From the IMG/VR virus record IMGVR_UViG_2778261354_000015: DNA of 32,488 nucleotides; one strand, written 5' to 3'. The translations under genes were made by a program, and so were the position numbers. The stretch comes from a virus (lineage: Duplodnaviria > Heunggongvirae > Uroviricota > Caudoviricetes). The notes under the pieces are model-generated. The model was not told where the DNA came from, made no database searches, and was given only the letters and a program-made list of their open reading frames with translations. Below are positions 1-32,488 of this stretch, piece after piece. How positions within the stretch are numbered: the first letter of the stretch is position 1; the number at the start of each line of letters is the position of its first letter.

Positions 1-318
1 GTGAAAAAGATAGCTGCTATATCATTAATTAGTGTTTTTCTTATGTCTGGTTGTGCTGTGCATAATGATGAGACAAGTATCGGTAAATTTGGCCTTGCAT
101 ATAAAAGTAATATTCAGCGTAAACTTGATAACCAATACTACACCGAAGCCGAAGCTTCTTTAGCCAGGGGTAGAATATCTGGTGCAGAAAATATAGTAAA
201 AAATGATGCAACTCATTTCTGTGTTACCCAGGGCAAAAAAATGCAGATAGTTGACCTGAAGACAGAAGGTGCAGGATTACATGGCGTCGCTCGTCTGACA
301 TTCAAATGTGGAGAGTGA
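1..318 (+). CDS. yegR: Small lipoprotein (YegR-like), 105 aa, host gene flanking the prophage
   Basis: Complete ORF with signal peptide and lipobox (LMSGC). Lies on the far side of the P2 remnant from yegQ, as yegR does in E. coli K-12. Symbol from memory of the K-12 locus, not searched. Confidence 0.6.
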   Translation: MKKIAAISLISVFLMSGCAVHNDETSIGKFGLAYKSNIQRKLDNQYYTEAEASLARGRISGAENIVKNDATHFCVTQGKKMQIVDLKTEGAGLHGVARLTFKCGE

Positions 319-487
319 GAATATTTTTTGGTAAGCGTCAAACATGCGCGTTCTGGCTGTGCGTAACCGGAACCTGTGCGAGCACGATGTCGATAAGTAA
401 AAGGCATCGTGCTATGAAGGAGGATTCTATCGATGTGGTCAATGGAAGACGGTGACCAGGGATCAATCCGTATTTACAGCTTATGCA

Positions 488-515
488 TAAAAAATAAGCC
501 CGTGTAAGGGAGATT
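488..515. repeat. attL core (direct repeat copy 1)
   Basis: taaaaaataagcccgtgtaagggagatt is identical to 30955..30982. It matches the 27-bp P2 att core sequence as I remember it. Confidence 0.85.
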
Positions 516-594
516 TAGGGTGTCACCAGTAGGGGCTTTCAACGGTACAATGCGGGTTTGAGCGGCATAAATTACCACTGAAAGCCCTTAAACG

Positions 595-1608
595 TTACTC
601 TACTGTGGACACTGTGTGGACACTCTCGGCCTCAGTACCACCTCTTAGCGGATTAAGAGAAATGGCGTCCTGAAGGTACTCTGGCGCAAAATGAGCGTAA
701 ACCATAGTTTGTTCAATCCGCGTGTGACCTAGTATCCGTTGTAGCGTGATAATACTTCCTCCATTAATCATGAAATGAGTGGCAAAGCTGTGCCTTAGTG
801 CATGTGTGGCTTGCCCCATTGGCAAATCCGGTTTTATTGCTTTCATTGTTCGTCTGAAGCGAGGGTAATCAGCATCAGGGAATAAAAAACCTCGTTTGTT
901 ATCCGCGATCATTTTGGCAACAGCCTCTGAGATCGGGACGGTGCGTGGTTTGTTTGTTTTCGTTTTAACAAACGTGACGCGGTTATGGATGATATTTTCT
1001 GCTTTCAAACGAGCTGCTTCTCCCCAACGTGCTCCAGTACTCAGGCAAAGAATCGCAATCTTTTTATTGTCGCCGTCAAGAGCAGCAAGCAGTAAGGCAA
1101 TTTCTTCCTGCGTGAGATAGCCTGTGTCTGGTTTTTCCTCCTTAAGCCTTTTTGTCCCTCTGATAGGGTGCTCACCAAAGAATAACTCCGCTTCAATCAG
1201 GGCTGTAAACATGCCGCTAATACATGTTAAATCACGATTGATACTCGAAGGTTTAATACCCTGACTTCTTCGGGTGGCGCAGTACTGGCTGATAAGCGAT
1301 TTCGTAATTTGAAATGCGCATGGGTCATTCGTTATTTTTGTGAAGATTTCAATTTTTCCAAGATTAGATTTCCCATGCTCTTCGTGTTTACCCTTTAAAT
1401 CCCACCAGATCTGTGTCAGCTCCGACAGACGTCGCTTGTCTGTTGGTTTTGATAGCCATTCTTTATTGTGGTGGTTGTACAACGTGTATTTCTCGAAAGC
1501 GACAGCTTCGCTTTTCTTATCAAACTTCCTACGGATGCGTTTTCCATTACGTCCAGTAGGGCGGATGTCCACTTCATATCGACCATCATCGAGTTTTTTG
1601 ATTGCCAT
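595..1608 (-). CDS. int: Tyrosine integrase, P2 Int-like (337 aa)
   Basis: Length and sequence match P2 Int. C-terminal catalytic region has the R..H.LRH..Y arrangement (HALRHSFATH ... Y). Sits next to attL. RBS ggaggg upstream. Confidence 0.95.
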   Translation of the reverse strand: MAIKKLDDGRYEVDIRPTGRNGKRIRRKFDKKSEAVAFEKYTLYNHHNKEWLSKPTDKRRLSELTQIWWDLKGKHEEHGKSNLGKIEIFTKITNDPCAFQITKSLISQYCATRRSQGIKPSSINRDLTCISGMFTALIEAELFFGEHPIRGTKRLKEEKPDTGYLTQEEIALLLAALDGDNKKIAILCLSTGARWGEAARLKAENIIHNRVTFVKTKTNKPRTVPISEAVAKMIADNKRGFLFPDADYPRFRRTMKAIKPDLPMGQATHALRHSFATHFMINGGSIITLQRILGHTRIEQTMVYAHFAPEYLQDAISLNPLRGGTEAESVHTVSTVE

Positions 1609-6660: not shown

Positions 6661-7620
6661 ATGAAAATATTTATTAGTTGGTCAGGTTCGGACAGCCTAG
6701 AGATAGCGAAAGTATTACGGGATTGGATCCCTAATGTTATTCAAGTAGCTGAGCCGTACGTATCAGCAGAGGATATTGATAAAGGTACTCGCTGGGCGAC
6801 CGATATATCAAAGGAACTTGATGACTCTTCTTATGGCATTATTTGTCTTACAAAGAGTAATATTAATGCTCCTTGGATAAATTTTGAAGCAGGTGCTTTA
6901 GGTAAAAAAGTTGACAAAAGCCGAGTTAGCCCTTTCTTGTTTAAAATTAAACCATCTGAAGTAACAGGTCCAATTTTACAATTTCAGTCTACTCGCTCGG
7001 ATGATAAAAACGATATTTTGAAGTTGATGTTATCCATAAATAAACAAGCTGGATTTTTGTCTGAAGATCGCTTAACAAAAGCTTTCGAGCAGTGGTGGCC
7101 AAGTTTAGAACATGAGTTAGATAGCATTCCCGATATTAGTCCTGTAGATAAAGATTCAGCAAAACAAGCAAAAGGTAGTTCAAGTTCTGAAATACAAAAC
7201 CTTTCTAAAATTGTTGAAAACTTGCTGGATATTAGCCGAACGAATCACCAGTTATTACGTGATCCAGCATCGCTTTTGCCAGAAGAATATGTTAGTAAAA
7301 TAATAAATAGAAGTGAGCGTAAAGAAAGTACCTTAAGAACCGTAGTCTCTGATTTATCAGTTGCATATCGTTCAGCTATTCGTCTAAAAAGAAGCCTCAT
7401 GAGACATGGTCTTGATGAAGTCTCGATGGACGAATACATTGATTCACTAAATAAAATAATAGATGATTTTGCTAAACCAATCAATTACTTAGAGCGTCGC
7501 TATGGGAAGGGTAGTGCTCATATGTCAGATGCTTTACTCCATCGTTCACTTAGACCACGATCCAGAAACTTAATTGATATGATGGTTGAGGAAGATACAG
7601 AACAGGATGAAATTGTATGA
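6661..7620 (+). CDS. TIR-like domain protein with uncharacterised C-terminal domain (cargo at the P2 tin/old slot); candidate anti-phage defence protein
   Basis: 319 aa. N-terminus MKIFISWSGSD ... ICLTKSNINAPWINFEAG gives a TIR-type beta-A strand and a W-x3-E motif (E76, codon 6886..6888) like the catalytic Glu of TIR NADases. The gene looks AT-rich compared with the backbone. It occupies the slot where P2 carries orf91/tin/old. Confidence 0.65.
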   Translation: MKIFISWSGSDSLEIAKVLRDWIPNVIQVAEPYVSAEDIDKGTRWATDISKELDDSSYGIICLTKSNINAPWINFEAGALGKKVDKSRVSPFLFKIKPSEVTGPILQFQSTRSDDKNDILKLMLSINKQAGFLSEDRLTKAFEQWWPSLEHELDSIPDISPVDKDSAKQAKGSSSSEIQNLSKIVENLLDISRTNHQLLRDPASLLPEEYVSKIINRSERKESTLRTVVSDLSVAYRSAIRLKRSLMRHGLDEVSMDEYIDSLNKIIDDFAKPINYLERRYGKGSAHMSDALLHRSLRPRSRNLIDMMVEEDTEQDEIV

Positions 7621-19720: not shown

Positions 19721-21838
19721 ATGAGCACAAAATTCAGAACCGTTATCACCACTGCCGGTGCAGCAAAGCTGGCAGCGGCAACCGCGCCGGGAGGGCGGAA
19801 GGTCAACATTACCACGATGGCCGTCGGGGATGGCGGTGGTAAATTGCCTGTCCCGGATGCCGGACAGACCGGGCTTATCCACGAAGTCTGGCGACATGCG
19901 CTGAACAAAATCAGCCAGGACAAACGAAACAGTAATTATATTATCGCAGAGCTGGTTATTCCGCCGGAGGTGGGCGGTTTCTGGATGCGTGAGCTTGGCC
20001 TGTACGATGATGCTGGAACGTTAATTGCCGTGGCGAACATGGCCGAAAGTTATAAGCCAGCTCTTGCCGAAGGCTCAGGGCGTTCGCAGACCTGTCGCAT
20101 GGTCATCATCGTCAGCAGTGTGGCCTCAGTGGCGCTGACCATTGACACCACAACGGTGATGGCGACGCAGGATTACGTTGATGACAAAATTGCAGAGCAT
20201 GAACAGTCACGACGTCACCCGGACGCCTCGCTGACCGCAAAAGGTTTTACTCAGTTAAGCAATGCGACCAACAGCACGTCTGAAACACTGGCCGCAACGC
20301 CGAAAGCGGTTAAGGCCGCCTATGACCTGGCTAACGGGAAATACACTGCGCAGGATGCCACCACAGCGCGAAAAGGCCTTGTCCAGCTCAGTAGCGCCAC
20401 CAACAGCACGTCTGAAACGCTCGCCGCAACACCAAAAGCGGTAAAGGCAGCATATGACCTTGCTAACGGGAAATACACTGCACAGGACGCCACCACAGCG
20501 CGAAAAGGTCTTGTCCAGCTCAGTAGCGCCACCAACAGTGATTCTGAAACGCTGGCTGCAACACCAAAAGCGGTGAAGTCTGCCTATGACAATGCTGAAA
20601 AACGTCTTCAGAAAGATCAGAACGGTGCGGATATTCCTGATAAAGGACGCTTCCTGAGTAACATTAATGTTTACAGCAAAGGTGAAGTGGATAAGAAAAA
20701 GGGAATGCGAAAGTATTCGTTTGCAGCCCCTGCAAATGTCGTTGCCGGGAAGTGGTATCCCGTTATCTTTCGCCGTGCTGCCAGCCTTTCAGGAGAAATG
20801 GCATCCCGCGTCGTTATTTCCACTGGTTGTTATAACAGCGATTATGTAATGAATAACTGCGAGTTTAATGGCATGGTTATGCCCGGAGGCTGGACTGATC
20901 GTGGTTCATATGCGGCAGGTTATTTCTGGACGTATCAGACTAATGAGCGTTCAATTCATTCCATTGTTACAAGCCTGAAAGATGATGATGTATGTAGTGT
21001 TTTTTATGTTGAAGCCAGAGCTTTCCCTGTACAAATTCTTGCAGAGGAAGGGCTAACGGTTATTGTTCCGACAGAGGATTATGTCGTCGGTCAGACGACA
21101 TATAAGTGGGGGGCAACTAATCCCGCTACAGAAAGCACGAACGCGCAGGCTATTCTGGATTTTAAAAATGGGCGCGGTTATTACTGCTCACATCCATTTA
21201 TTTCCAGCCTTTCAGGAAATGCTGCAACAGCAACAAAGTTAGCGAACGCAAGAAATATTAATGGTGTCAGATTTGATGGCTCTGCCGATATAAATATTAA
21301 TACACTGGTTTCCAGAAACCGTGTTACTGCATTAGGTGGGAGCGTAAAGGGGACACCAGGTATTCAGATGTATGAGGCATACAACAATGGCTACCCAACA
21401 GCCTATGGTAATGTGCTTCATCTCACTGGTGTAACCGCAGTAGGAGAGGGTGAGTTACTTATTGGCTGGAGTGGAACCAGCGGTGCTCATGCTCCGGCAT
21501 ATATTCGCTCCCGACGAGATACCACAGATGCTAACTGGTCTGGATGGGCGCAACTATATACAACTGCTCATAAACCCTCAGCGGGAGATGTTGGTGCATA
21601 CACCAAAGCTGAGTCAGATTCACGTTATGTGAGAGACATGCGGCTGGGCGGTGCATCTACATATAAACCAGCAAATAATGGTATTACATGGACGCATCAG
21701 GCTCCGTCAGGTTGCGTATATACCGGCATTATTGTTCAGGATACCGGCTCAAACTCTGCCGATAACATTGGTGGCGTATATTACAGACCGGTGCAGAAAT
21801 ACATTAACGGGACATGGTATAACGTGGCGCAGGTATAA
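19721..21838 (+). CDS. H: Tail fiber protein (705 aa) with conserved N-terminus, internal fiber repeats and a divergent, lower-GC distal region
   Basis: N-terminal about 170 aa match P2 gpH. Three tandem copies of a roughly 43-aa fiber repeat follow. The distal part, from about 20640, looks AT-richer and differs from what I remember of P2 H. Confidence 0.9.
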   Translation: MSTKFRTVITTAGAAKLAAATAPGGRKVNITTMAVGDGGGKLPVPDAGQTGLIHEVWRHALNKISQDKRNSNYIIAELVIPPEVGGFWMRELGLYDDAGTLIAVANMAESYKPALAEGSGRSQTCRMVIIVSSVASVALTIDTTTVMATQDYVDDKIAEHEQSRRHPDASLTAKGFTQLSNATNSTSETLAATPKAVKAAYDLANGKYTAQDATTARKGLVQLSSATNSTSETLAATPKAVKAAYDLANGKYTAQDATTARKGLVQLSSATNSDSETLAATPKAVKSAYDNAEKRLQKDQNGADIPDKGRFLSNINVYSKGEVDKKKGMRKYSFAAPANVVAGKWYPVIFRRAASLSGEMASRVVISTGCYNSDYVMNNCEFNGMVMPGGWTDRGSYAAGYFWTYQTNERSIHSIVTSLKDDDVCSVFYVEARAFPVQILAEEGLTVIVPTEDYVVGQTTYKWGATNPATESTNAQAILDFKNGRGYYCSHPFISSLSGNAATATKLANARNINGVRFDGSADININTLVSRNRVTALGGSVKGTPGIQMYEAYNNGYPTAYGNVLHLTGVTAVGEGELLIGWSGTSGAHAPAYIRSRRDTTDANWSGWAQLYTTAHKPSAGDVGAYTKAESDSRYVRDMRLGGASTYKPANNGITWTHQAPSGCVYTGIIVQDTGSNSADNIGGVYYRPVQKYINGTWYNVAQV
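20240..20593 (+). repeat. Tandem 129-bp repeat (about 2.7 copies) inside tail fiber gene H
   Basis: Units start near 20240, 20372 and 20501. Each encodes K/GxxQLSxATNSTSETLAATPKAVKAAYDLANGKYTAQDATTAR, and the third copy is truncated and diverged. Confidence 0.85.
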
Positions 21839-22650: not shown

Positions 22651-23586
22651 ATGGCTACTTATGCTTCTTATTTACCAGAATCACAAATTATCACTTTGTG
22701 CAAGGATTTCCCAGCGTTTACTGATCCTGAAAAATTAGATGGATTCATTAATCCAGAACAGTTTGGCGTGTTTTTTCATGAGTGGATTCATTTTCTTCAC
22801 AATATTTCCACAATTAATGGGTTTTCTATTTTTTGCACGCAAAACATCCTGTGGTCTAATTTTCGCTGGGCAATGGACAATCAGGATGTATGTCTTGGTT
22901 CAAATGACATGGATCCAGCACATATCGAATCAAACAAAAATTTTCTCAGTTACATTCGTTCCAATAGGAGTCTGCATAAATGTAACTTACCTTATTATGT
23001 AAAAGTAAACGACTTGTATTTTGAGGATGCAATAATCCATGACATGGAGGTTGCTGACGGTAGTGTTACATGTACATCATTAATAAAGTGTAGAATTTCT
23101 CATTCTGAAAACAAATACGATCTAGATTTAGGCGTGCTTGAAATACTTGAATCCGCAGCTTTTATGCTTGAATGTAAGTGTATTAATGCGATGAATGGCT
23201 TCCCTCAAGAGGCACCCTTTTATCCGTATCATACTATCAAAGGCTTAGCAGCGAAAATTGCTCCGTCATTAAATGATGAAGATATTATTTGTTGTATGTT
23301 AGCTTCTTTGCAATCTAATAACCCTCCCCAAGTATTATTCAATCTACTACATAAATGTGAATTATTACATTCTGATTGTAGGTATGAACATCTAGTGGCG
23401 GAGGTGAAAAAACAATTAAGCGAACAAGATCAAATAATAAGCGAGTCACTTAATCAAATAATTCAAATGATTCCTGTTGATGAACCGATGGGAAACTTTA
23501 TCAAGCTTACTCTTAACAGAATAAGTAACAATTTGAACTATAGAAAGCAAAAACCGTTTTTTGAGTTAGATATAATAAAAAAATAG
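22651..23586 (+). CDS. Uncharacterised cargo protein (311 aa) with HExxH motif; candidate defence component A
   Basis: Long ORF in an AT-rich island with a strong RBS. HEWIH at residues 43..47 (22777..22791) sits in a hydrophobic context like zincin metallopeptidase active sites. No similarity to any P2 backbone protein that I recognise. Confidence 0.6.
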   Translation: MATYASYLPESQIITLCKDFPAFTDPEKLDGFINPEQFGVFFHEWIHFLHNISTINGFSIFCTQNILWSNFRWAMDNQDVCLGSNDMDPAHIESNKNFLSYIRSNRSLHKCNLPYYVKVNDLYFEDAIIHDMEVADGSVTCTSLIKCRISHSENKYDLDLGVLEILESAAFMLECKCINAMNGFPQEAPFYPYHTIKGLAAKIAPSLNDEDIICCMLASLQSNNPPQVLFNLLHKCELLHSDCRYEHLVAEVKKQLSEQDQIISESLNQIIQMIPVDEPMGNFIKLTLNRISNNLNYRKQKPFFELDIIKK

Positions 23587-23603
23587 CAGAAAAAACTGAG
23601 TTT

Positions 23604-23993
23604 ATGAATGAAGTAATACAGAAATTCGGTGGTTGCACTATCATCCAGGTAAGACATGGAGATGATAATGAACCACAGCGTGATATTATGTATGACTTTT
23701 GCTTACCTGAAAATAATGATTCAATTTTATTTGGTTCGAAAATGCTACGCGCTTGTTTTCACTTTATATTTATTCACTTTAAACTTTCTGGTGAAATCAT
23801 GAAGACAGAAGAATTAAATATTTCGCCGCGTAATAAATGCCCATTTTATACTGTTTGCTGTGCATCAATTCGAGCTAATAATAGTAATATCTGCGCTGAA
23901 TCCCCTTGGAAATCAATGTCTATTGATGACAACAAAGGTTGTTATTATGCAGCAGCGATTAAAGCTACTAACCCACCAGTTTTGCCGGATTAA
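23604..23993 (+). CDS. Small cysteine-rich cargo protein (129 aa); candidate defence component B
   Basis: ORF 17 nt downstream of the previous gene on the same strand. Eight Cys residues, including a CC pair. The RBS is weak, so the start is uncertain. Same AT-rich island. Confidence 0.45.
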   Translation: MNEVIQKFGGCTIIQVRHGDDNEPQRDIMYDFCLPENNDSILFGSKMLRACFHFIFIHFKLSGEIMKTEELNISPRNKCPFYTVCCASIRANNSNICAESPWKSMSIDDNKGCYYAAAIKATNPPVLPD

Positions 23994-24251: not shown

Positions 24252-25442
24252 ATGAGTGACTATCATCACGGCGTGCAGGTGCTGGAGATTAACGACGGCA
24301 CACGCGTCATTTCCACCGTATCCACTGCCATTGTCGGCATGGTCTGCACGGCCAGCGATGCGGATGCGGAAACCTTCCCCCTCAATAAACCTGTGCTGAT
24401 TACCAATGTGCAGAGTGCAATTGCAAAGGCCGGTAAAAAAGGCACGCTGGCGGCATCGTTGCAGGCCATCGCTGACCAGTCAAAACCGGTCACCGTTGTC
24501 GTGCGCGTGGAAGACGGCACCGGTGATGACGAGGAAACGAAACTCGCGCAGACCGTTTCCAATATTATCGGCACCACTGACGAAAACGGTCAGTACACCG
24601 GACTGAAAGCCCTGCTGGCGGCGGAGTCGGTAACCGGTGTTAAACCGCGTATTCTTGGTGTGCCGGGGCTGGATACCAAAGAGGTGGCTGTTGCACTGGC
24701 ATCAGTCTGTCAGAAGCTGCGCGCTTTCGGATATATCAGCGCATGGGGCTGTAAGACCATTTCCGAGGTGAAAGCCTACCGCCAGAATTTCAGCCAGCGT
24801 GAGCTGATGGTCATCTGGCCGGATTTCCTCGCATGGGATACGGTCACCAGTACCACCGCCACCGCGCATGCCACCGCCCGTGCGCTGGGTCTGCGCGCTA
24901 AAATCGACCAGGAGCAGGGCTGGCATAAAACGCTGTCCAACGTTGGGGTAAACGGTGTTACCGGCATCAGCGCATCTGTATTCTGGGATTTGCAGGAGTC
25001 CGGCACCGATGCTGACCTGCTTAACGAGTCAGGCGTCACTACGCTGATTCGCCGTGACGGTTTCCGCTTCTGGGGTAACCGTACCTGCTCTGATGACCCG
25101 CTGTTCCTCTTTGAAAACTACACCCGCACCGCGCAGGTGCTGGCCGACACGATGGCTGAGGCGCACATGTGGGCGGTGGACAAGCCCATCACCGCAACGC
25201 TGATTCGCGACATCGTTGACGGCATCAATGCCAAATTCCGTGAGCTGAAAACAAACGGCTATATCGTGGATGCGACCTGCTGGTTCAGCGAAGAATCCAA
25301 CGATGCGGAAACCCTCAAGGCCGGAAAACTGTATATCGACTACGACTATACCCCGGTGCCTCCTCTCGAAAACCTGACCCTGCGCCAGCGTATTACCGAT
25401 AAATACCTGGCAAATCTGGTCACCTCGGTTAACAGCAATTAA
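24252..25442 (+). CDS. FI: Tail sheath protein
   Basis: 396 aa, matches P2 gpFI. Confidence 0.95.
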   Translation: MSDYHHGVQVLEINDGTRVISTVSTAIVGMVCTASDADAETFPLNKPVLITNVQSAIAKAGKKGTLAASLQAIADQSKPVTVVVRVEDGTGDDEETKLAQTVSNIIGTTDENGQYTGLKALLAAESVTGVKPRILGVPGLDTKEVAVALASVCQKLRAFGYISAWGCKTISEVKAYRQNFSQRELMVIWPDFLAWDTVTSTTATAHATARALGLRAKIDQEQGWHKTLSNVGVNGVTGISASVFWDLQESGTDADLLNESGVTTLIRRDGFRFWGNRTCSDDPLFLFENYTRTAQVLADTMAEAHMWAVDKPITATLIRDIVDGINAKFRELKTNGYIVDATCWFSEESNDAETLKAGKLYIDYDYTPVPPLENLTLRQRITDKYLANLVTSVNSN

Positions 25443-29391: not shown

Positions 29392-30554
29392 TGCTGGATG
29401 CGCTGACATTTGATGCAGGCAGTACGCTGACGCCGGATTACATGCTGATGCTCGACAGCAGGGATATTACCGGCAATATCAGTGACCGTCTGATGAGCAT
29501 GACCCTGACGGATAACCGGGGCTTTGAGGCTGACCAGCTTGATATTGAACTGAACGATGCCGACGGGCAGGTCGGGCTGCCGGTTCGTGGCGCTGTCCTG
29601 ACGGTGTATATCGGCTGGAAAGGTTTTGCCCTGGTATGCAAAGGGAAATTTACCGTTGATGAGGTTGAACACCGGGGCGCACCGGATGTGGTCACCATCC
29701 GCGCCCGGAGTGCAGATTTCCGCGGGACGCTCAATTCCCGCCGGGAAGGCTCCTGGCATGACACCACGCTCGGTGCGATTGTTGAGGCGATAGCCTCCCG
29801 TAACAGGCTGGAGGCCAGTGTCGCTCCGTCACTGGCCGGAATTAAAATCCCGCACATCGACCAGTCGCAGGAGTCTGATGCGAAATTCCTGACCCGTCTT
29901 GCAGAACGCAACGGCGGTGAGGTGTCGGTAAAAATGGGAAAACTGTTGTTTCTCAAAGCGGGGCAGGGGGTGACGGCCAGCGGTAAAAAAATCCCGCAGG
30001 TCACCATCACCCGCAGCGACGGCGACCGTCATCATTTTGCGATTGCTGACCGTGGAGCCTATACCGGCGTTACGGCAAAGTGGTTACACACCAAAGACCC
30101 GAAGCCGCAAAAGCAGAAGGTAAAACTGAAACGCAAAAAGAAAGAGAAACACCTGCGCGCACTGGAGCACCCGAAAGCGAAACCGGTCACGCAGAAGAAA
30201 GAGCCAAAAGTACCGGAAGCGCGCGAAGGTGAATACATGGCCGGTGAGGCTGACAACGTTTTTGCCCTGACCACGGTATATGCCACGAAAGCACAGGCCA
30301 TGCGCGCCGCTCAGGCGAAGTGGGATAAACTGCAACGGGGTGTTGCGGAGTTCTCCATCAGCCTGGCTACTGGTCGGGCAGATATTTACACGGAAACACC
30401 GGTTAAAGTGTCAGGCTTTAAGCGCGTCATAGACGAGCAGGACTGGACCATCACTAAGGTGACACATTGTCTCAATAATAGCGGCTTCACGACGTCCTTG
30501 GAGCTTGAGGTAAGGCTTTCTGATGTGGAGTACGAAACAGAAGATGATGAGTGA
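29391..30554 (+). CDS. D: Tail protein D (baseplate hub / late control D)
   Basis: 387 aa, matches P2 gpD. Confidence 0.93.
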   Translation: MLDALTFDAGSTLTPDYMLMLDSRDITGNISDRLMSMTLTDNRGFEADQLDIELNDADGQVGLPVRGAVLTVYIGWKGFALVCKGKFTVDEVEHRGAPDVVTIRARSADFRGTLNSRREGSWHDTTLGAIVEAIASRNRLEASVAPSLAGIKIPHIDQSQESDAKFLTRLAERNGGEVSVKMGKLLFLKAGQGVTASGKKIPQVTITRSDGDRHHFAIADRGAYTGVTAKWLHTKDPKPQKQKVKLKRKKKEKHLRALEHPKAKPVTQKKEPKVPEAREGEYMAGEADNVFALTTVYATKAQAMRAAQAKWDKLQRGVAEFSISLATGRADIYTETPVKVSGFKRVIDEQDWTITKVTHCLNNSGFTTSLELEVRLSDVEYETEDDE

Positions 30555-30635: not shown

Positions 30636-30854
30636 ATGTTTCATTGTCCTTTATGCCAGCATGCCGCACATGCGCGTACAAGTCGCTATATCACTGACAC
30701 GACAAAAGAGCGTTATCACCAGTGCCAGAACGTGAATTGCAGCGCCACGTTCATCACTTATGAGTCGGTACAGCGATACATCGTAAAGCCGGGAGAAGTC
30801 CACGCCGTAAGGCCGCACCCGTTACCGTCAGGGCAGCAAATTATGTGGATGTAA
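30636..30854 (+). CDS. ogr: Late gene transcriptional activator Ogr (C4 zinc finger, 72 aa)
   Basis: Starts MFHCPLCQHAAHARTSRYI with CxxC ... C..NC cysteines, matching P2 Ogr. The ORF-track start at 30573 is an over-extension. Confidence 0.92.
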   Translation: MFHCPLCQHAAHARTSRYITDTTKERYHQCQNVNCSATFITYESVQRYIVKPGEVHAVRPHPLPSGQQIMWM

Positions 30855-30866
30855 TTACAAACAGAA

Positions 30867-30891
30867 AGCCCCTCAGTCGAGGGGCTTTTTT
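30867..30891 (+). terminator. Rho-independent terminator downstream of ogr
   Basis: Stem agcccctc (30867..30874), loop agtc, stem gaggggct (30879..30886), followed by tttttt. Confidence 0.8.
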
Positions 30892-30954
30892 GTCGATGTG
30901 GTCAATGTGTGGACGTGACCAGAAATAAATCCTTTTATTTCATTGAATTACGCG

Positions 30955-30982
30955 TAAAAAATAAGCCCGTGTAAGGGAGATT
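30955..30982. repeat. attR core (direct repeat copy 2)
   Basis: Identical to 488..515. Overlaps the 3' terminator region of cyaR on the minus strand. Confidence 0.85.
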
Positions 30983-31042
30983 ACACAGGCTAAGGAGGTG
31001 GTTCCTGGTACAGCTAGCATTTTATGGGTTATGTTTTTCAGC
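30956..31042 (-). ncRNA. cyaR: CyaR (RyeE) Hfq-dependent sRNA
   Basis: Minus-strand sequence gctgaaaaacataacccataaaatgctagctgtaccaggaaccacctccttagcctgtgtaatctcccttacacgggcttatttttt matches CyaR as I remember it, including the CCUCCUUA seed-like region and the terminator hairpin plus U-tail. A CRP-like site and -10 element lie upstream. Confidence 0.85.
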
Positions 31043-31076
31043 GAAACGGATGATAACCTTAATAAATGCAGCTGTA

Positions 31077-31126: not shown

Positions 31127-32488
31127 TCACTTACCGTGGGGGTTACGCGTGGTTTCCCCGGAGAAATTACGCATCAGCAGCGCGTAATTTAGCTCAAGAT
31201 CCTGCGGCACCGGGAGCCACACAGTATAACCATCGCCTGGTGCGACCGGCATTGCTTCACCTTTGGCGTTTTCCATGTGCTCAAGGGTAAAGTTAATGTT
31301 GCCTTGCGGCGTCATCAGCTCAAGGCTGTCGCCAACGGAGAATTTATTTTTCACCGCTACCGCCGCGAGCTCCCCCTTGCGCTTACCGGTAAACTCACCA
31401 ACAAACTGCTGACGGTCAGAAACCGAATAACCGTATTCGTAGTTCTGATAATCGTCGTGGGTATGACGACGCAGGAAACCTTCGGTATAGCCACGATGCG
31501 CCAGACCTTCCAGAGTTTCCAGCAGGCTGGTATCGAACGGTTTGCCCGCAGCGGCGTCATCGATAGCTTTACGGTAAACCTGCGCGGTGCGTGCGCAATA
31601 GTAGAAAGATTTGGTACGGCCTTCGATTTTCAGCGAATGCACGCCCATTTTGGTCAGGCGTTCAACATGGGCGATGGCGCGCAGATCTTTCGAGTTCATG
31701 ATGTAAGTGCCGTGCTCATCTTCAAACGCGGTCATATACTCGCCCGGACGCTGGGCTTCTTCGATCATAAACACTTTGTCGGTTGGCGCGCCGATACCCA
31801 GCGTCGGCTCAACATTTTGCACCGGAATCGGCTCGTACTTGTGTACGATGTTGCCGACGTCATCTTCTTTCCCTTCCTGGACGTTATACTCCCAGCGGCA
31901 GGCGTTGGTGCAGGTGCCCTGGTTCGGGTCGCGCTTGTTGATATAGCCAGAGAGCAGGCAGCGACCGGAGTAGGCCATGCACAGCGCGCCGTGAACGAAG
32001 ATTTCGATCTCCATATCCGGTACCTGATTGCGGATCTCTGCAATCTCTTCCAGTGACAGTTCGCGAGAGAGGATCACGCGGGTTAGACCCATTTGCTGCC
32101 AGAATTTTACCGTCGCCCAGTTTACGGCGTTAGCCTGTACCGAGAGGTGGATTGGCATTTCCGGGAAGTGCTCACGCACCAGCATAATCAGCCCTGGATC
32201 GGACATAATCAGCGCATCCGGCCCCATTTCCACCACCGGTTTCAGGTCACGGATAAAGGTTTTCAGCTTGGCGTTGTGCGGTGCAATGTTGACCACGACA
32301 TAAAACTTTTTCCCCAGCGCGTGGGCTTCATTGATGCCGAGCTGAAGATTTTCGTGGTTGAATTCGTTGTTGCGCACACGCAGGGAGTAACGCGGCTGGC
32401 CCGCATAAACAGCATCTGCGCCATAAGCGAAAGCGTAACGCATATTTTTCAGCGTTCCCGCCGGGGAAAGGAGTTCCGGTTTAAACAT
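31127..32488 (-). CDS. yegQ: U32-family peptidase-like protein YegQ (RlhA), 453 aa, host gene
   Basis: Complete 453-aa ORF on the minus strand; sequence and length match E. coli YegQ from memory. Neighbour of cyaR and the P2 attachment locus in E. coli. Confidence 0.8.
   Translation of the reverse strand: MFKPELLSPAGTLKNMRYAFAYGADAVYAGQPRYSLRVRNNEFNHENLQLGINEAHALGKKFYVVVNIAPHNAKLKTFIRDLKPVVEMGPDALIMSDPGLIMLVREHFPEMPIHLSVQANAVNWATVKFWQQMGLTRVILSRELSLEEIAEIRNQVPDMEIEIFVHGALCMAYSGRCLLSGYINKRDPNQGTCTNACRWEYNVQEGKEDDVGNIVHKYEPIPVQNVEPTLGIGAPTDKVFMIEEAQRPGEYMTAFEDEHGTYIMNSKDLRAIAHVERLTKMGVHSLKIEGRTKSFYYCARTAQVYRKAIDDAAAGKPFDTSLLETLEGLAHRGYTEGFLRRHTHDDYQNYEYGYSVSDRQQFVGEFTGKRKGELAAVAVKNKFSVGDSLELMTPQGNINFTLEHMENAKGEAMPVAPGDGYTVWLPVPQDLELNYALLMRNFSGETTRNPHGK

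Follow-up and report, generated by a model that had tools for sequence, protein, structure and literature searches.

In Salmonella, the 3' end of the sRNA gene sdsR has been described as a repeated integration site (PMC3333887), and P2-type prophages have been recorded at a "cyaR RNA" insertion site at which the "ogr-D'" element of Escherichia coli K-12 is found as well (PMC3032704). In the GenBank record of P2 itself, the phage attachment region is laid out in the order ogr terminator, Int P-arm footprint (tcgatgtggtcaatgtgtggacgtgacc), IHF site, core, Cox sites and Int P' arm. We take the P2 attachment site at the cyaR locus to be the locI of the P2 literature, and the cryptic P2 remnant of K-12 was reportedly first described there by Barreiro and Haggard-Ljungquist in 1992. 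As with the other integration sites at sRNA and tRNA 3' ends (sdsR, ssrA and rybB), the core at the locus analysed here is the terminator end of a conserved sRNA gene. Unlike those sites, however, the cyaR locus has layers that can still be read, namely a probable fossil, the K-12 remnant and an intact prophage.

The window, by which we mean the whole stretch of 32,488 nucleotides analysed here, is an E. coli-type chromosome segment holding a complete P2-like prophage that runs from int (595-1608, minus strand) to ogr (30636-30854, plus strand). The features of the two attachment sites and their surroundings are the following, with the strand given for genes and terminators.

1-318, plus strand: yegR, an orphan lipoprotein gene, named yegR in E. 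coli genome annotations
319-424: 3' flank of yegR, of unknown origin, with an inverted repeat at 381-413; part of the inserted segment
425-488: probable fossil P arm, derived by decay from the left arm of a P2-type attP (alignment and shuffle test)
430-457: homologue of the P2 Int P-arm footprint (annotation of the P2 record and sequence comparison)
489-515: attL core, duplicating the final 27 nt of cyaR; same sequence as 30956-30982 and as the attP core of P2
516-640: P' arm of the resident prophage with the Cox-binding region (P2 annotation and repeat scan)
595-1608, minus strand: int, the P2-type tyrosine integrase gene of the resident prophage (Pfam Int_N and Phage_integrase)
30636-30854, plus strand: ogr, late-gene activator and final gene of the prophage (Pfam Ogr_Delta; P2 annotation)
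30865-30888, plus strand: rho-independent terminator of ogr, with the same sequence as the annotated terminator of P2
30893-30955: functional P arm of the resident prophage, with the Int footprint at 30893-30920 and then the IHF region up to the core (P2 sites)
30956-30982: attR core, the 3' end of intact cyaR (repeat finder; Rfam)
30956-31044, minus strand: cyaR (RyeE) sRNA gene, its terminator hairpin lying across the boundary of core and B' (Rfam RF00112)
31127-32488, minus strand: yegQ, a conserved host gene flanking the site on the right, whose orthologues in 80 species share 88-99% identity

The prophage ends are marked by identical 27-bp cores (AAAAAATAAGCCCGTGTAAGGGAGATT) at 489-515 and 30956-30982, and the annotated attP core of P2 is the same. 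In the P' arm of the resident prophage, a repeat scan located two TGTGGACA Int repeats, at 604-611 and 615-622; its P arm has the same Int footprint as P2 and, compared with the annotated P2 site, a nearly identical IHF region. On the attR side, Rfam model RF00112 (CyaR/RyeE) matches the minus strand of 30959-31044 over its full length (model positions 1-85 of 85) with 100.7 bits against a gathering score of 47. The 27-bp core makes up the 3' half of the CyaR terminator stem together with the U-tract. Integration thus regenerates cyaR at attR and leaves a 27-nt duplicate of its end at attL.

The interior of the prophage holds several features of its own. At 6661-7620 on the plus strand, in a cargo position after the replication genes, lies a 319-aa ORF with an N-terminal TIR domain (PF13676), which may be an anti-phage defence gene. 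A 705-aa ORF (19721-21838), probably a tail-fibre gene, contains a 132-nt tandem duplication at 20239-20502, the copies of which are 84% identical. Two plus-strand ORFs of 311 and 129 aa (22651-23993), both without a Pfam match, sit between the presumed tail-fibre genes and a 396-aa ORF at 24252-25442; P2-like phages are known to carry variable cargo in this region.

A first-pass annotation, made from the letters of the window, had proposed that the DNA to the left of attL resembles the phage P arm and that this likeness was left behind by an older P2-like integration. The resemblance itself was confirmed, as positions 425-488 align in register with 30888-30955. A repeat finder returned an ungapped match of 425-469 with 30888-30932 (76% identical) and a second block, 481-515 with 30948-30982, separated from the first by a 4-nt indel. 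Global alignment of the 64 nt at 425-488 with the 68 nt at 30888-30955 gave 50 identical columns out of 69. With the P arm defined as 30888-30954, the alignment score was 23, against -9.4 ± 4.2 for dinucleotide shuffles, none of which was as good in 20,000 trials; the best score among 9,188 other 64-nt segments of the window was 7. The similarity reported in the first-pass annotation therefore stands, and it is its starting point that had to be moved: "tcgatgtgg" begins at 430 rather than 433, and the likeness as a whole at 425.

The segment 430-457 (tcgatgtggtcaatggaagacggtgacc) spans the entire annotated Int P-arm footprint of P2 and is identical to it, ungapped, at 22 of 28 positions. The single arm repeat that had been recognised as retained, TGTGGTCA, is indeed present at 434-441 beside attL and at 30897-30904 beside attR. 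Downstream of the footprint, 458-488 aligns weakly with the IHF region; a scan with the IHF consensus WATCAANNNNTTR found no match within one mismatch either in this B arm or in the true P arm, and is hence non-discriminating. Like the P arm of P2 attP, the segment 425-488 adjoins the 27-bp core on the ogr side and in the same orientation, and it shares with that arm the first TGTGGTCA and a TGGTCA...TGACCA inverted repeat. Unlike the P2 arm, it carries a degenerate second arm repeat (ggaagacg at 444-451 as against TGTGGACG, with 5 of 8 positions matching and the spacing changed by 1 nt), and its IHF region is partly recognisable, in the long allele described below. The flank is also in register with the P arms of the resident prophage and of six further P2-like elements. 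What precedes it is not ogr with its rho-independent terminator; yegR and an unrelated hairpin lacking a U-tract lie there instead.

The same sequence is found throughout E. coli. In a search with window positions 1-600, yegR, the P-like flank and the core were present in about 5,368 of 5,426 complete E. coli genomes. In the prophage-free strain S1 (locus L002), yegR is followed by tcgatgtggtcaatggaagacggttaccagagatagggcttatgcat, the core and cyaR. Prophage-free strains had been named in the first-pass annotation as the place where the stretch might turn out to be ordinary conserved host intergenic DNA with no relation to P2-like att arms. Conserved host DNA it is, but the relation to the P2 arms is present there all the same, so that only the first part of that expectation holds.

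To establish the state of the locus in other species, we compared the yegQ locus from 80 Enterobacteriaceae species. The core and B' (cyaR) are conserved downstream of yegQ in 76 of the 80 loci. In 46 of these 76, that of Escherichia sp. E1V33 among them, no more than 74-145 nt separate the start of yegS from the core, and both yegR and the P-like flank are absent. E1V33 is the one non-coli Escherichia in this sample that shows the ancestral state. The distance from yegS to the core in E. coli is 882 nt, and the short (empty) yegS-cyaR arrangement was found in none of the 5,426 E. coli genomes. The remaining 30 of the 76 loci are occupied or scarred; DNA has been inserted there at the same position, in lengths from 243 nt to over 2.8 kb. 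Given so many insertions at one point, the cyaR site is a repeatedly used integration point.

A counterpart of the flank lies outside the window, between yegS and yegR. There, the DNA beside yegS in strain S1 is homologous to the ancestral flank of E1V33 and Citrobacter, and the homology stops exactly at the position of their core. At that point S1 carries a degenerate core (aaaaagtcagttcaagtatggaggatt), which matches the core at 18 of 27 positions and is followed by cagtggttaccaccaggagcttgcaatggggac, identical to the P' arm of P2 in 24 of 34 columns. One further feature is thereby added to those of the window.

L002 1182-1241, E. coli S1, in the yegS-yegR intergenic region just left of window position 1: degenerate attL (core and P')

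This attL is short, at about 60 nt with about 70% identity; over the 60 nt it scores 19, against -6.2 ± 4.2 for shuffles, none of 5,000 being as good. The 33 nt after the degenerate core score 10 against the P' arm (0-2 of 5,000 shuffles as good) and -5 against the cyaR side. The region is present in 5,289 of the 5,426 E. coli genomes. With a degenerate attL on the left and the P relic and intact core on the right, the yegR segment of about 0.8 kb therefore lies between two fossil att sites, an attL and an attR. The older P2-like integration scar that had been proposed is thus borne out by the in-register P arms, the absence of the flank from the ancestral arrangement and the matching degenerate attL. 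We conclude that 425-488 is very probably a molecular fossil, in which the P arm of a P2-like element, integrated long ago at the 3' end of cyaR, survives in decayed form.

We propose that this element would have entered the last 27 nt of cyaR by Int-mediated recombination in an ancestor of E. coli. The core would have been duplicated on integration, the copy on the attR side staying intact as the CyaR terminator and the copy on the attL side drifting, together with both arms, to about 70% identity; since the cyaR sRNA gene ends in this core, the core would survive while the arms decay. Deletions would then have removed the recognisable phage genes and left about 0.8 kb with yegR. The resulting order would be yegS, ancestral flank, degenerate core and P', yegR, 106 nt, degenerate P arm, intact core, cyaR and yegQ. 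Later P2-like phages would use the preserved core, and since they integrate into it, every newer layer would be inserted with the fossil P arm on one side and cyaR on the other. Two such layers would be the K-12 ogrK-yegZ remnant and this window's intact prophage. Because the yegR segment is bracketed by fossil att sites, the modern P2 attB at this locus would be the attR of the fossil. From the observed homologies, positions and presence or absence across genomes we infer this order of events, and likewise that the fossil is no longer active in recombination. Bearing on its activity, one Int arm repeat is intact and its partner degenerate, and 12 nt of the IHF region are missing from most E. 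coli.

The remnant of K-12 must be kept apart from the flank. The first-pass annotation had named the K-12 ogrK/yegZ remnant locus for comparison; the flank is not that remnant. In K-12-type genomes, the initial 18 nt of the core come after the flank and run directly into the 3' end of gene D; ogrK, a P arm and the full core are next, and this P arm has a single mismatch to that of the window. The remnant is therefore a layer of its own, younger than the flank and placed on its right, and did not give rise to it. At a K-12-type locus (L001, 1977-2000), the 18-nt core and gene D are joined at a GTGT microhomology, the point in D corresponding approximately to window position 30345. The left junction of the K-12 remnant suggests a single illegitimate deletion from attL into D. 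Like the fossil, the remnant represents a P2-like prophage at the 3' end of cyaR that was reduced by deletion with the attR side left intact. The remnant, however, is young and has a recognisable D' and ogr, whereas the fossil is older (about 70% identity), contains no phage gene and is fixed across E. coli.

Further insertions at the site are found in other species. Five Enterobacter and Leclercia loci (L079, L057, L080, L008 and L073) have independent insertions of 0.6-1.7 kb between yegS and cyaR. The core boundary is the exact starting point of these insertions, in some cases with 10-17 nt of a partial core in front; in L079, L057 and L080 the partial core is kept beside the ancestral flank, and L079 additionally has a degenerate P arm on the cyaR side. 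In E. albertii NBRC 107761 (L010, 4534-7091), a P-arm-like relic lies beside the cyaR core, with an IHF region nearly identical to that of P2 and degraded Int repeats. It is followed by two unknown ORFs and then by cdtA and cdtB (cytolethal distending toxin), as if a further P2-type remnant at this site had kept a toxin as cargo.

Several alleles of the B arm exist within E. coli. Those that are common measure 47-49 nt, and a 60-nt long allele is present in this window and in a handful of genomes; a second, diverged long allele and several short ones also occur, and the core-proximal part is unusually polymorphic. The common short allele, carried by most E. coli, is the form that lacks 12 nt of the IHF region. 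Because the long allele matches the P arm much better (score 26, versus 3 for the common short allele), the comparison suggests that the short form may have arisen through a 12-nt deletion. In two IMG/VR E. coli lysogens (L091 and L098), the B arm ends in "cttacgcgt" instead of "cttatgcat". The "acgcgt" beside the core in these arms corresponds to the bases of this window's P arm, which suggests occasional exchange of the host flank with the phage arm beyond the 27-bp core.

Exchange of this kind could be thought to account for the likeness as a whole. There would then have been no single scar; the P arms of one prophage after another would have maintained the likeness of the flank through recurrent gene conversion or homologous exchange, an account that fits the minority "acgcgt" allele and the unusual polymorphism close to the core. 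We consider it quite unlikely. Repeated exchange needs prior homology and so leaves the origin of the similarity unexplained, and it likewise does not explain the fossil attL 0.8 kb away. The flank is, moreover, about 28% diverged from modern P arms, and among the IMG/VR matches listed for its diagnostic 18-mer (80 of 116) none lies inside a phage genome, all of them being near contig ends, that is, in host flank beside prophages. Exchange is better understood as a later overlay on the fossil, in which incoming phages may have renewed some of its likeness to the P arm.

Similarity alone gives no direction, and the DNA could in principle have passed from host to phage. Aberrant excision is a known process, by which a P2 ancestor might have taken up E. 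coli DNA past the cyaR terminator and turned it into its P arm. P2-like elements are found beside cyaR in Citrobacter, Trabulsiella and other genera, however, and their P arms, which align with the flank, share a layout of terminator, TGTGGTCA-N3-TGTGGAC, A/T-rich block and core. Five loci (L012, L044, L051, L066 and L072) have an ogr-type terminator and a P arm beside the core, L066 also retaining D and ogr. The P-arm layout and the Int footprint are thus conserved at cyaR in hosts that lack the E. coli flank, and P arms of this type are widespread in phages, whereas the flank is restricted, in the genomes compared, to the E. coli lineage. It is also the host copy that is degenerate, its second Int repeat broken and part of its IHF region lost in most alleles. 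Finally, the flank belongs to an insertion that the ancestral arrangement lacks and that has a fossil attL at its other end, a configuration that capture by a phage would not produce. We therefore regard transfer in this direction as highly improbable and retain the reading of 425-488 as a decayed phage arm. No phage with a P arm nearer to the flank than that of P2 was found among 50,697 phage records. Phage TP and vB_EcoM-720R8 came up as candidates for closer P arms and were rejected, their matches being E. coli host flank included in the records.

The first-pass annotation had also placed a 9-bp inverted repeat with a 15-nt loop in the same stretch. The repeat is real (381-389 and 405-413), but it lies outside the P-like stretch. 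As RNA it would form 11 pairs, by way of a G-U pair. A role as a terminator or structured RNA found little support: the hairpin has no U-tract and matches no terminator pattern, the region folds only modestly better than shuffled sequence (z = -2.2), and no compensatory changes occur in the stem across E. coli alleles, in which it is nearly invariant. The surrounding positions 319-424 show no similarity to phages other than in records that include host flank. That the P-arm likeness of 425-488 arose by chance, or from a shared low-complexity or host regulatory element such as a yegR 3' UTR or terminator, has a negligible probability, for although the region lies downstream of yegR and folds slightly better than shuffles, none of the 20,000 shuffles or 9,188 other segments came near the observed score, the likeness abuts the core and covers the Int footprint, and the hairpin, itself no match to a terminator pattern, is not part of it.

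Little of the ancient element can be recognised between its fossil att sites. A tblastn search with every prophage ORF for P2 protein-coding relics in this interval returned noise only. No phage homologue of YegR was found either, the IMG/VR matches all being E. coli flank. With no phage coding relic and no phage relative of yegR, it is therefore the att arms, and these only, that give the element its phage identity. All the YegR homologues retrieved carry the label PF27694, and a direct Pfam scan gave no PF27694 match.

Distant yegR homologues occur in unrelated contexts, in an IS-flanked island, beside a UDG-family (PF03167) gene and near a glutaminase gene. The closest non-coli homologue of YegR, with 83% identity, is encoded on a metagenome contig (L178, 3001-3654). 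It lies between glutaminase and nitroreductase genes, followed by a 110-aa ORF. The nucleotide homology of this contig to E. coli does not reach beyond the ORF, so that yegR has the behaviour of a small mobile gene. The apparently divergent YegR proteins P0044 and P0018 were left out as outgroups, their neighbouring genes being split in the assemblies. At two other loci (L003, 1825-1994, and L004), a 170-bp AT-rich insertion directly follows the yegR stop codon. In these strains yegR is 99% identical to that of the window; the insertion is absent from the window, from K-12 and from S1, and one phage record annotates a 41-aa hypothetical ORF in it.

Scars left by prophages at sRNA genes are a familiar type of relic; what is new is that the standard P2 attB would be a fossil attR that has become fixed in E. 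coli, although an extended homology between attP and locI may already be part of the 1992 literature. A stronger version of this reading, in which locI is a fossil attR whose Int arm repeat still matters and yegR, which today belongs to the core genome of E. coli, was delivered as cargo of the ancient element, appears rather doubtful to us. If it were true, Int binding at 434-441 would make attB resemble attR and attL resemble attP, and the arm repeat could add to the strong site preference of P2 or alter excision.

For the calling of prophage boundaries, the locus advises caution, as the likeness of attL and attR runs about 64 bp beyond the true core. The arrival of yegR at the locus would be dated to the old insertion. 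More broadly, the cyaR locus offers a clean worked example of layered integrations at an sRNA gene, in which the textbook P2 attB of E. coli would not be naive host DNA and would have been kept because of its double role as the CyaR terminator.
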